The notes under the pieces: model-generated
What the model saw: the letters and a program-made list of their open reading frames with translations, nothing else
Told to the model about the DNA's origin: nothing
Databases searched by the model: none
Part shown: piece by piece, positions 60,586 through 64,000 of the stretch
Layout: each line of letters opens with the position of its first letter
How positions within the stretch are numbered: the stretch's first letter is position 1
Assembly (NCBI GenBank): GCA_016839705.1
Contig: JAEOTR010000048.1
Coordinates: forward strand, 1 to 64,000
Direction of reading: 5' to 3'
DNA: 64,000 bases
DNA from: Promethearchaeota archaeon
GTDB taxonomy: Archaea > Asgardarchaeota > Lokiarchaeia > Sigyniarchaeales > SOKP01
Position numbers and translations under genes: made by a program

Positions 60586-61170
60586 TTATTCTTTTTTAGT
60601 TTCTAATTCTTCAATATCTAGCGTCCATTTAACGCCAAAAGCAGTAATTATTAGTGAAATAATCATTAAAAAACAATTCACAGCAATAAAGTATGTCCAA
60701 AATATCGCAGGCATGAGAGGTGTTATATCTGAACGATATAACGCAGTTTGGAATGCTACTGATCCACTACCTGTTGACAAAGGTGTTTTTCCTAATAGAA
60801 CAAGATAATTCATTTTTATAAACGCTCCTAAAAGTATTACCATTCCAATAACAATCATTAATTTAGCTAGTGATTTACTTTCAATCTTGTTAGTTTTAGC
60901 TGTCTTGAATATAAAGAATCCTAAAATTAAGAATAAGATCATAGAAATGATAAAAAAGAGCCATAAGACGGTTCCTGTTAATGAAATATAACTTGATCCA
61001 TACATAAATTCTGATAACAGAATTAGACTACCATTAAGATTAAATTCAGTAAAATTTAATGTAATAAAAAAAGCAATTTCTATAATAGAAAGACACATAA
61101 AGATAAGGCCATTAATTTTAAGAAATTTTGTTAATTTTTTATGGTCCATATTTATCAACACAAGTAGCAA
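60586..61170 (-). CDS. Four-TM membrane protein
   Basis: Four hydrophobic segments and an acidic tail. Confidence 0.7.
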   Translation of the reverse strand: MLLVLINMDHKKLTKFLKINGLIFMCLSIIEIAFFITLNFTEFNLNGSLILLSEFMYGSSYISLTGTVLWLFFIISMILFLILGFFIFKTAKTNKIESKSLAKLMIVIGMVILLGAFIKMNYLVLLGKTPLSTGSGSVAFQTALYRSDITPLMPAIFWTYFIAVNCFLMIISLIITAFGVKWTLDIEELETKKE

Positions 61171-61271
61171 GAAAAATTTTTTATTCTATTATATTTTTAC
61201 TTATTATTGTTTTTGAAATTTTTAACAATTTTTAATATTATTGTTTTTTTCTGCAAGTCTAATTTATTCAT

Positions 61272-62300
61272 TTGAACAAGATCGTTGATTTTTTGAAAGA
61301 AAAAAGAAACAATACAAAGGAGCAGTCGTTATGTCTTCATAAAAATATGAAGAAAGTTAAGGGACATTATCACTGTCAAGATTGTGGGAAACGATTATCT
61401 CTTAAAGAATATTACAAATTAAAAAAAACAAAAGAATCCCTTCCTGAACAAAACCTTACATTTGAAGAACCTACTAGTGATTTCTATTCAGAGTCCCAGA
61501 TTGATTATGAAAGAAAGATAAAAATGAGTGATTCAAAAGCTTTACAAGACCCGGTAATTAAGGAAAAGTATGAGCGTCTGAAAACATTAGAAAAATGGTT
61601 TCGGGATTATGAAACTGATTTCACAGAACAAAAAAAAACGATCGAACTTCTAAAAAACCATGGAATAGGATTAACTATTGATAATGTAAAATATCGAGAA
61701 ATTCGAGATCTTTACCTACGCTATAATAAATATCATCGTCATAGCTACCAAAATATGGTCATTATTTTTCTCGCAATAATATGGATGGAAATAAAGGACA
61801 CCACCAATATTCGGATTGATGAATTCATTAAAGTGTCGAAAGAATTAGGTCATAAAATTAATAAGAAAATGATTACAAATGCAATGTTAAAAGTGAAGAG
61901 AACTGAAAATTTGATACAACAGAAAAAAAGCATTCCTGAATTAGAAAAAGAAATCAAAGAAAAAATAAAATTGGTCTTTCAAAAAGACATAAATACCATT
62001 CCGTTTGAGGAAGTCAAAGAATTCTTCCAGAGCACTTCTGAATTTGAAAAGATGAAAATTACTATGCAGTTAAACGCAGATAAGATACTACAACAGATTA
62101 CCTATGAAGCAATCCATAGCTTAAATTATAAAGCCTTTGTGGCAGGTTTAATTTATTATATTGGTCAAATGTTTGAAAACCGCAAGATTTTTACGCAGAA
62201 TTTAATCGAAAAATACACCAAATTCTCAAGCACAACAATAAGAAAAAAATTTCACACCCTTATAGATCTCTTAGGGGAACCTCAAAAATTTCAACTCTAA
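61272..62300 (+). CDS. Highly divergent TFIIB-like protein
   Basis: Zn ribbon CLH...HCQDCG; C-terminal KAFVAGLIYYIG...FTQNLIEKYTKFSSTTIRKKF matches the TFB cyclin-2/HTH. Confidence 0.7.
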   Translation: MNKIVDFLKEKRNNTKEQSLCLHKNMKKVKGHYHCQDCGKRLSLKEYYKLKKTKESLPEQNLTFEEPTSDFYSESQIDYERKIKMSDSKALQDPVIKEKYERLKTLEKWFRDYETDFTEQKKTIELLKNHGIGLTIDNVKYREIRDLYLRYNKYHRHSYQNMVIIFLAIIWMEIKDTTNIRIDEFIKVSKELGHKINKKMITNAMLKVKRTENLIQQKKSIPELEKEIKEKIKLVFQKDINTIPFEEVKEFFQSTSEFEKMKITMQLNADKILQQITYEAIHSLNYKAFVAGLIYYIGQMFENRKIFTQNLIEKYTKFSSTTIRKKFHTLIDLLGEPQKFQL

Positions 62301-62405
62301 TTTTTTTAAAATAATAATTTTAAATGAATTCCATACCATTAAAAACCTTTAAATCTATACTATTTATTATTCTAACTATATTTACCAGAACTAGTACCAA
62401 TCAAT

Positions 62406-64000
62406 ATGTCAGAGGTAAAAACATCTAAAGGGACTTATTATCATCAACCCCTCAATGAATTACTGAGAGAATTTAAGACTGATTTTGATCGTGGATTAAA
62501 ATCGTCTGAGTTAGAGGATAGATATCTAAACTATGGTCATAATGAATTGCCAAAGATCAAGAAATCTATATGGAAAATATATTTTGCCCCAATTTTTAAT
62601 TTCCTAATCTTAATTCTCCTTGTAACAGGAATAATCGTAGTTATCTTAGGTTCGCCCGGAGAAACCGTCATAACTTTTACTGTTGTGTTTATAAATTCTG
62701 CAACCGTGATCATCCAGCAGTATAGAGCCCAAAAGGCGCTTGAATCTTTACGACAAATCTCCGCTTTGAAAGCGACAGTTCTGAGAGATGGAAAACAATT
62801 TGAAATACCGAACAGGGAATTAGTTCCAGGAGATATTGTAATCTTAAATCAAGGAGACAAGATTCCCGCAGATGGGAGAATTGTCGACCAAGTCAATTTA
62901 ACAATAGATGAAGCTCCTTTAACTGGAGAAAGTGAACCTGTAGAAAAGAATAACAATATCCTCAGTAAAGATGATGTATCCATCCAAAAACAGTCAAATA
63001 TGATGTTTATGGGTACATATGTGCATACTGGAAGGGCAAAAGCTTTAATAACTGGTACTGCCGCAAATACTGAAATAGGAAAAATCTCTGTTACTTTGAA
63101 TGAGATGGGAAGTATTGAAGAGATTCCCCTAACCCGAAAATTAAATAGATTAGGACATATTTTGGGAATAATAGTAATAATCAATTTATTTGTATTAATA
63201 ACTTATAAATTCATTCTCTTAGCTGACAATAATAATTTAATTCAATCAGAAATTACACACGCTTTAGTAAGTTCTATTATTAGGGCAACAAATGTACTTC
63301 CAATAAATTTGCCTCTATTAAGCACTCTTGTTCTCATAACAGGCGTTTTAAGTATGGCTCAACACGGAGTAATTATTAAAAATTTATCCGCAATTGAATC
63401 ACTGGGACGCGTATCCGTAATCTGTTCGGATAAAACTGGTACAATTACCAAAAACGAGATGACCGTTGAAAAGTTTTGGATAGGTGAGAAAGAGTATGAT
63501 GTTAGTGGCTCCGGGTATGATGCAGAAGGTGAGATATTATTCAATGGGCAAAAATTTAATCTTAACGATAATTCTACATTCCAAAAATTCATCGATTCAA
63601 TTGTTTTGAATAATAATGCACAACTTATTTTTGAAGATGTAAAAATTCGGGTAGCTGAACGAAAAGAAATGGCAGTAAGACGTGCTTTAGGATCTCCTAC
63701 CGAAGCAGCATTGCTAGTTTTAGCAGAAAAGGCAGGATATATCCCATATGATGTGAAAAAAAAGTATACTCTTTTGACTGAATTTTCTTTTAGCTCCGAA
63801 TTAAAACGTATGAGTTCGATCTATGAATTAAAGGAGAATAATAAACAGAAATTTGTATTCTCTAAAGGAGCTCCTGAAAAAATTCTAACAATCTGCTCCC
63901 AGATTGAAATAGATGGAAGTATTGAAAATCTAGATAATAACCATAAAGAAAAAGTTTTAGAAAAAATAAGAGATCGAGCAAATCAAGGTTTTAGAACATT
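62406..64000 (+). CDS. P-type ATPase (P2-like scaffold, atypical M4), 3'-partial; absent from the ORF track
   Basis: Manual translation from ATG 62406: YGHNEL, LVPGDIV, IPADGR, LTGES (TGES at 62922-62933), CSDKTGT (DKTGT at 63429-63443), KRMS, KGAPE. Open to the window end. Confidence 0.95.
   Translation, partial: MSEVKTSKGTYYHQPLNELLREFKTDFDRGLKSSELEDRYLNYGHNELPKIKKSIWKIYFAPIFNFLILILLVTGIIVVILGSPGETVITFTVVFINSATVIIQQYRAQKALESLRQISALKATVLRDGKQFEIPNRELVPGDIVILNQGDKIPADGRIVDQVNLTIDEAPLTGESEPVEKNNNILSKDDVSIQKQSNMMFMGTYVHTGRAKALITGTAANTEIGKISVTLNEMGSIEEIPLTRKLNRLGHILGIIVIINLFVLITYKFILLADNNNLIQSEITHALVSSIIRATNVLPINLPLLSTLVLITGVLSMAQHGVIIKNLSAIESLGRVSVICSDKTGTITKNEMTVEKFWIGEKEYDVSGSGYDAEGEILFNGQKFNLNDNSTFQKFIDSIVLNNNAQLIFEDVKIRVAERKEMAVRRALGSPTEAALLVLAEKAGYIPYDVKKKYTLLTEFSFSSELKRMSSIYELKENNKQKFVFSKGAPEKILTICSQIEIDGSIENLDNNHKEKVLEKIRDRANQGFRT

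Follow-up and report, generated by a model that had tools for sequence, protein, structure and literature searches.

P-type ATPases fall into subfamilies defined by the ligand sets of membrane helices M4, M5 and M6, and as far as is known every new set has brought a new cargo with it. In the P2A Ca2+-ATPases (LMCA1, SPCA1/PMR1 and SERCA) M4 reads PEGLP and M6 reads NxxTD, and the M6 Asp of SERCA, D800, contributes to both Ca2+ sites. The P4 flippases are described from eukaryotes only (PMC10654040). Their marks are an A-domain DGET, an M4 PISL preceded by an Asn, and an M5 Lys (K873 in ATP8A2) beside a conserved Asn (PMC4937031, PMC10654040); they usually carry a CDC50 subunit, which the P4B pumps do not need (PMC10654040). 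In P3 ATPases such as AHA2, too, Ile or Val stands where PEGL has its Glu (PMC4937031). A review expects further prokaryotic P-type ATPase families (PMC10654040), and a survey of Asgard transporters cites P2 pumps as support for eukaryote-like Ca2+ signalling in Asgard (PMC7997004). The subject of this study is pump A, a P-type ATPase whose M4 reads PINLP and whose gene begins near the end of a 64,000-nucleotide stretch of DNA from a Promethearchaeota archaeon (contig JAEOTR010000048.1 of assembly GCA_016839705.1, hereafter the window).

Pump A and its relatives, in which M4 carries PxNxP and M6 carries a His (PxNxP/His pumps), probably constitute a distinct, Asgard-restricted subfamily derived from prokaryotic P2A (Ca2+-ATPase-like) pumps. 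By its residues and its predicted structure, pump A would have a single site, reshaped around a His, that takes a small cation or a proton. This branch of the calcium-pump family is apparently so far undescribed, and no paper describing the PxNxP/His signature was found, searches for the words PINLP and PINIP included; the FUPA families of TCDB were not compared.

Catalytic motifs and candidate ion-site residues of pump A

The first 531 codons of pump A lie at 62406..64000 on the plus strand, as do all motifs given below, with an ATG at 62406 and a reading frame that is open to the end of the window. The window is C34:1-64000 of an 88.8 kb contig (C34) in an assembly of 3.36 Mb and 97 contigs (31% G+C, 93% complete), and the gene, which the initial annotation had correctly described as running off the window, ends at C34:65261 and encodes 951 amino acids (P0001). 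Pfam assigns Cation_ATPase_N, E1-E2_ATPase, Cation_ATPase, Hydrolase and Cation_ATPase_C domains, which is the full P2/P3-type architecture. The ATP engine is complete: the A domain has the dephosphorylation motif TGES (residues 173-176; 62922..62933), which is of P2/P3 type and not the P4 DGET, the phosphorylation motif DKTGT (342-346, with D342) lies at 63429..63443, the nucleotide-binding motif KGAPE of the N domain lies at 63864..63878, and DPPR, TGD (as MITGD) and GDGxND (as TGDGIND) are all present. The superfamily marks DKTGT, a Glu-bearing A-domain motif, TGD and GDGxND are thus found together, and the superfamily model TIGR01494 scores 286 bits against a cut-off of 62.3; judged by its motif content, pump A is a catalytically intact P-type ATPase.

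M4, read as SIIRATNVLPINLPLL (63273..63320), has P299-I300-N301-L302-P303 in place of PEGLP. PINL itself occupies 63300..63311 (PINLP to 63314), exactly where the initial annotation had placed it as a substitute for the Glu-bearing P2 motif, and the P2-like TGES and KGAPE that it had reported are likewise intact. In the HMMER alignment, where the best solved relative is Listeria LMCA1, followed by SPCA1 and SERCA, PINLP falls on PEALS/PEGLP, such that I300 corresponds to the PEGL Glu and N301 to the Gly. M6 of pump A is QHIYIFGIVHSLPSLAL against QLLFINLVNDSLPAIAL in the alignment, and SERCA N796, T799 and D800 become F753, V756 and H757. M5 to M10 are encoded beyond the window. The ligands of M5, M6 and M8, which the initial annotation had left for inspection in the full gene, divide: M5 retains N724 and E727 (SERCA N768 and E771) and M8 retains E852 (SERCA E908; placed by motif alignment), whereas the M6 Asp has become His. 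The canonical ligands of Ca2+ site II are replaced, E309 by Ile, N796 by Phe and D800 by His. At the cytoplasmic end of M2 the sequence QQYRAQ (62715..62732) puts Q105 in place of a Glu (SERCA E109).

P-[IF]-N-L-P is present in all of the 120 closest homologues, which are 68-87% identical to pump A. In a search of 1.8 billion representatives clustered at 50% identity, about 31 clusters have an M4 of the form P-[IVFWL]-N-[ILF]-[PVI], with a switch to PEGLP at around 540-560 bits. Because it is kept in these closest homologues and in some 31 clusters at 50% identity, the PINLP motif is, on sequence grounds, not a chance change. Its conservation in Asgard orthologues had been singled out beforehand as a point to be checked, and the orthologues keep the motif and do not have PEGL.

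Site statistics were taken from a MAFFT alignment of representatives of 31 family clusters and 101 PEGL clusters. The position of the PEGL Glu is I, V, F, W or L in 31/31 family clusters and Glu in 100/101 PEGL relatives, and the following Gly (G310 in SERCA numbering, used throughout this comparison) is Asn in 28/31 of the family and Gly in 88/101 of the relatives, where Ser or Ala are otherwise seen. In M6, D800 is replaced by His in 30/31 (Asp in 94/101 relatives) and N796 by Tyr or Phe in 18/31 (Asn in 95/101). The M1 position Q56 is Pro in 27/31 clusters against Gln in 95/101, and E109 of M2 is Gln in 26/31 against Glu in 97/101; the departure of QQYRAQ from the P2 sequence QEYRAE, already remarked upon in the initial annotation, is hence a family signature. 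Retained acidic residues are E771 of M5 (Glu in 31/31, and in 94/101 relatives) and E908 of M8 (Glu in 29/31, and in 45/101 relatives). TGES is kept position by position (T 30/31, G 31/31, E 31/31, S 27/31). PxNxP in M4 goes with His in M6, and in most clusters the loss of N796 and T799 and the change of E109 to Gln go along with them.

Family placement and distribution

Pump A scores best with the NCBIfam P2A models, at 462 bits for TIGR01522 (cut-off 798.3), 456 for TIGR01116 (703.4) and 416 for TIGR01517 (507). The P3A model TIGR01647 gives 344 bits (615.5), the P5 model 237 bits (618) and the P4 model TIGR01652 111 bits (431; 88 bits for the neighbouring pump B), and no curated equivalog cut-off of these P2A, P3A, P5 and P4 models is reached by pump A. 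An AlphaFold2 model built from a 50-sequence alignment (predicted local distance difference test, pLDDT, 82.5; predicted template modelling score, pTM, 0.75) has the 10-helix P2 fold. In this model M4 is unwound at residues 296-301, which include P299-I300-N301, between helices 280-295 and 302-319, and M6 is broken at H757-S758, as seen in cation pumps. Foldseek comparison of the model with the PDB gave template modelling (TM) scores of up to 0.81, highest for E2P-like states, and the best 50 matches were all P2 pumps (SPCA1, LMCA1, SERCA, Na,K-ATPase and H,K-ATPase), with no P4 flippase structure among them. The M4 segment alone had no match to PDB sequences and therefore could not be aligned residue by residue with a P4 structure.

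Two quick trees, with support from the SH-like approximate likelihood ratio test (SH-aLRT) only, agree with this placement. In the first (IQ-TREE, rooted on the genome's two P1B pumps) the family came out as a single clade (SH-aLRT 100) with a stem of 0.33, among prokaryotic PEGL pumps. In the second, to which two archaeal P3A pumps and one P3B-like pump were added, the clade was again supported at SH-aLRT 100, and it joined the PEGL pumps at SH-aLRT 91 with the P3 sequences outside. The P2-type scaffold proposed in the initial annotation is supported by Pfam domains, P2A-best model scores, fold matches and trees. The marks of the P2A group are nonetheless split in pump A: PEGLP, the M6 N..TD and scores above the cut-offs are absent, while the P2 architecture, the fold and the grouping in the trees are present.

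Compared with LMCA1, SPCA1/PMR1 and SERCA, to which it is closest by sequence, model score, fold and tree grouping with PEGL pumps, pump A has the same domain order, 10-helix fold, TGES, DKTGT, KGAPE, GDGxND, M5 N..E and M8 Glu. The family differs from these P2A pumps in PINLP for PEGLP, in [YF]xx-x-H for NxxTD in M6, in Gln for E109 of M2 and Pro for Q56 of M1, in a Leu after GDGxND where P2A pumps have Pro, and in an insert in the loop L7/8. The mycobacterial P6 ATPase CtpE, compared by description only, is likewise a P2-like pump that lacks the M6 Asp, but it has PEGL, and Ile at the M6 Asp position (PMC10654040), where the family has PINLP and His.

All named members of the family are Asgard archaea (Bacteria and eukaryotes were not searched systematically) and come from Lokiarchaeota/Promethearchaeota, Thor-, Hod-, Hermod- and Helarchaeota, Candidatus Harpocratesius and Promethearchaeum syntrophicum. 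The member from the cultured P. syntrophicum (P0307) has AAIPFNFP in M4 and His in M6 and belongs to the basal subgroup of the family. At E<=1e-180, 66 of 121 Asgard genomes sampled across the phylum (~55%) have a family match; the 20 weaker hits inspected (E 1e-140 to 1e-164) all had PEGL with N..TD in M6, so this threshold keeps the two kinds apart. Some genomes, such as G046 and G112, have a PxNxP/His pump alongside a canonical PEGL pump. Two other archaeal phyla, each represented by about 200 genomes, gave no match at E<=1e-160, and in a scan of species-representative genomes PINxP occurred, among the 80 loci listed, only at a Promethearchaeota locus. The P-type ATPases of the host genome are the family members pump A, pump B and a partial copy A' on contig C95, together with two P1B pumps. 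This genome (93% complete) yielded no canonical PEGL Ca2+ pump, and the PxNxP/His pumps appear to be its only P2-like pumps.

A predicted single site and its possible cargo

In pump A, site II is dismantled through the loss of its Glu, Asn and Asp, with an aromatic residue occupying the N796 position. The polar residues that are left or gained, namely N301 in M4, N724 and E727 in M5, H757 in M6 and E852 in M8, would form a single remodelled site centred on the His, in a cavity between M4, M5, M6 and M8 that would overlap SERCA site I. This predicted site would be loaded and released through the usual E1/E2 phosphorylation cycle. Its cargo would be a small cation other than Ca2+. The TM6 Asp, described as omnipresent in Ca2+ efflux pumps (PMC10654040), is replaced; the loss of acidity in the M1/M2 entry funnel (E109 to Gln and Q56 to Pro) fits a shift away from Ca2+. 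Meanwhile, the two buried Glu that are kept and the near-invariant M6 His that is gained suggest an ion site rather than a lipid groove. Since the set comprises two carboxylates and one imidazole, two kinds of cargo fit. A proton, hydronium or monovalent ion, with the His as acceptor or built-in counter-charge, is a tentative first candidate, and built-in counter-ions are common among P-type pumps (PMC10654040). Slightly lower odds go to a divalent metal of the borderline class (Mn2+, Fe2+, Zn2+, Co2+ or Ni2+, for example), and the lean towards the proton or monovalent ion, a slight one, comes from the presence of two P1B pumps in the genome and from the de-acidified entry funnel.

Several points weigh against this proposed site. 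Alkali and alkaline-earth ions are not usually bound by His, and the two P1B heavy-metal pumps already in the genome weaken the transition-metal option. A non-cationic cargo would explain the loss of three acidic residues equally well. The co-variation of M4 and M6 is a single evolutionary event, that is, linkage within a clade and not repeated co-evolution. Finally, the gene neighbourhoods hold no clue to the transported ion, with subtilase, panB and MBL genes in one Asgard family and a TFB-like gene in that of pump A.

The initial annotation had linked the M4 motif to the P4 flippases and regarded pump A as possibly an intermediate towards them or convergent with them. As a flippase or proto-flippase for an archaeal lipid headgroup, whether ancestral to the P4 pumps or convergent with them, pump A would use its hydrophobic M4 residue as a gate, as ATP8A2 does with I364. 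The Ile shared with the P4 PISL (PMC4937031), the disappearance of three acidic residues from the Ca2+ path, and a host from the closest archaeal kin of eukaryotes all favour such a role. ATP8A2 and Drs2 also resemble the family in lacking an acidic residue at the M6 Asp position. However, a hydrophobic residue where PEGL has its Glu does not mark a flippase, because the P3 H+-ATPases have Ile or Val there too (PMC4937031), and only P-I is common to PISL and the family M4, in which Asn replaces the Ser and a second Pro follows. The upstream Asn (N296) that had been stressed as flippase-like is conserved in just 6/31 family clusters, and at the position of K873 the 31 clusters have I, V, L, T, A or C, never Lys. 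TGES instead of DGET, the two buried Glu with the near-invariant M6 His, a P4 score far below its cut-off where the P2A models reach about 460 bits, and the absence of P4 structures from the best 50 fold matches, in a group described from eukaryotes only (PMC10654040), all point the same way. The CDC50 profile (PF03381) had no match in the host genome, nor in any control genome. The trees, which group the clade with prokaryotic PEGL pumps, make it a derived offshoot and not an intermediate. The flippase link is weakly supported, convergent lipid transport has no tested pointer towards it, and a flippase or proto-flippase is very unlikely. An independent, Asgard-specific invention of giant-substrate transport on a Ca2+-pump scaffold, convergent with P4, in which the PxNxP/His pumps would take a cargo not known for any P2-type pump (an archaeal membrane lipid or another amphipathic or organic molecule), is also very unlikely; in a milder version, a P2 site centred on His would for the first time serve a transition metal or protons. 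The non-cation substrate suggested by the initial annotation survives in part: the substrate site has indeed changed, with its M4 cation ligands replaced, but the retained Glu and the His look like an ion site.

Databases annotate the family differently again, under source names such as 'Ca2+-transporting ATPase' or 'cation-translocating', and the transporter survey lists the P2 pumps of Asgard archaea under TC 3.A.3.2.21, among putative Ca2+-ATPases (PMC7997004). Efflux of Ca2+ (or Mn2+), with one ion at a site-I-like position, would agree with the retention of the N768, E771 and E908 equivalents and with a host genome in which no PEGL pump was found, but it is unlikely given that the equivalents of E309, N796 and D800 are all replaced, the omnipresent TM6 Asp included, and that the scores lie far under the curated Ca2+-pump cut-offs. 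Furthermore, the Asgard genomes in which the family coexists with a canonical PEGL pump argue for different roles. If the cargo were instead an organic cation of larger size (a polyamine, for instance, as with the P5B pumps) or another non-metal solute, the pump would use an enlarged, less acidic cavity. Bulky hydrophobic residues and Asn for the M4 Glu and Gly, a less acidic entry funnel and the wide substrate range of P-type pumps (PMC10654040) could be read in this way, but the low P5 score, the lack of extra N-terminal membrane helices or domains in Pfam and in the AlphaFold2 model, and the Phe or Tyr that in 18/31 clusters fills the cavity at the N796 position instead of enlarging it make this cargo quite improbable. 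Least credible of all is descent as a P3A-like proton pump, a true relative of the plasma-membrane H+-ATPases. The M4 pattern P-I-x-hydrophobic-P does resemble the P3 pumps, with their I/V (PMC4937031), and the likeness to AHA2, Pma1 and the archaeal MJ1226-type pumps extends to I/V/A at the PEGL Glu position and to a single, possibly proton-handling site. Against this, P3A pumps use an M6 Asp as proton acceptor together with an M5 Arg (PMC10654040), where the family has His in M6 and nothing basic in M5. TIGR01647 stays well short of its cut-off, and archaeal P3A examples, which read P-A-A-L and P-V-A-I in M4, retain the M6 Asp and are placed outside the group of family and PEGL pumps in the quick tree, for which support is modest (SH-aLRT 91).

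The PxNxP/His clade is large, strongly conserved, often present as a tandem pair, and found in about half of the sampled Asgard genomes. If its site cannot bind Ca2+, the inference of Ca2+ signalling from Asgard P2 pumps (PMC7997004) needs revisiting. The member in the cultured Promethearchaeum syntrophicum offers an experimentally tractable source.

Genes around pump A and other pumps of the genome

Beyond the window, a tandem paralogue, pump B (989 amino acids; C34:65956-68925, L004:5956-8925), follows pump A. It is 45% identical to pump A, has PINIP in M4 and the same His/Glu/Glu set, and probably works like pump A. Between the two pumps lies a gene for a putative redox protein of 179 amino acids with a C_GCAxxG_C_C domain (PF09719; C34:65310-65849, L004:5310-5849). 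The spacing of the two pumps is about 1 kb in two related genomes and 70-220 bp in others, which suggests that not all related loci have this gene, and tblastn in the related loci gave no match to it that passed the filter. The redox protein was considered as a partner subunit of the pump and dropped, as the spacing suggests that only some related loci have it. Pump B is directly followed by two neighbouring genes for GNAT acetyltransferases (179 and 197 amino acids; C34:68999-70113, L004:8999-10113).

Directly upstream of pump A, on the plus strand at 61272..62300, is a gene for a 342-amino-acid protein without a Pfam match. The protein combines a C-x-H...C-x2-C ribbon at its N terminus with a helical body, and its best Foldseek matches, which are weak (E 4e-3, TM 0.2-0.35), are archaeal TFB and eukaryotic TFIIB cores and cyclins; judged by this modelled fold, it is probably a divergent TFB/TFIIB-like transcription factor. 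Homologues in 11 related loci are 48-66% identical. The order of 342-amino-acid gene, pump A and pump B recurs, with the upstream gene at 11 of 13 related loci and pump B downstream in 9, scored where the loci extend far enough to show it. The 342-amino-acid gene is tied to pump A through position only. In 12 loci from other Asgard families synteny is at the family level only (subtilase, panB and MBL hydrolase).

Contig C95 has a second copy of the block made up of a gene for a 194-amino-acid membrane protein, the 342-amino-acid gene and pump A (L005 4237-7738; compare 60586-64000 of the window). The duplicates are 49% (194-amino-acid protein), 66% (342-amino-acid protein) and 73% (pump) identical at the amino acid level, and the second pump copy, A', also has PINLP and is cut by the contig end.

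The two P1B heavy-metal pumps of the genome have CPC motifs and are encoded at L023:1837-4734 (contig C85) and L024:2279-4303 (contig C29). They share a similar Cys/His-rich C-terminal tail, HCGQAMHKEGDQLVCW and HHGRDMVKKGEKLVCW, and one of them additionally has a DPVCGM (YHS/TRASH-like) piece.

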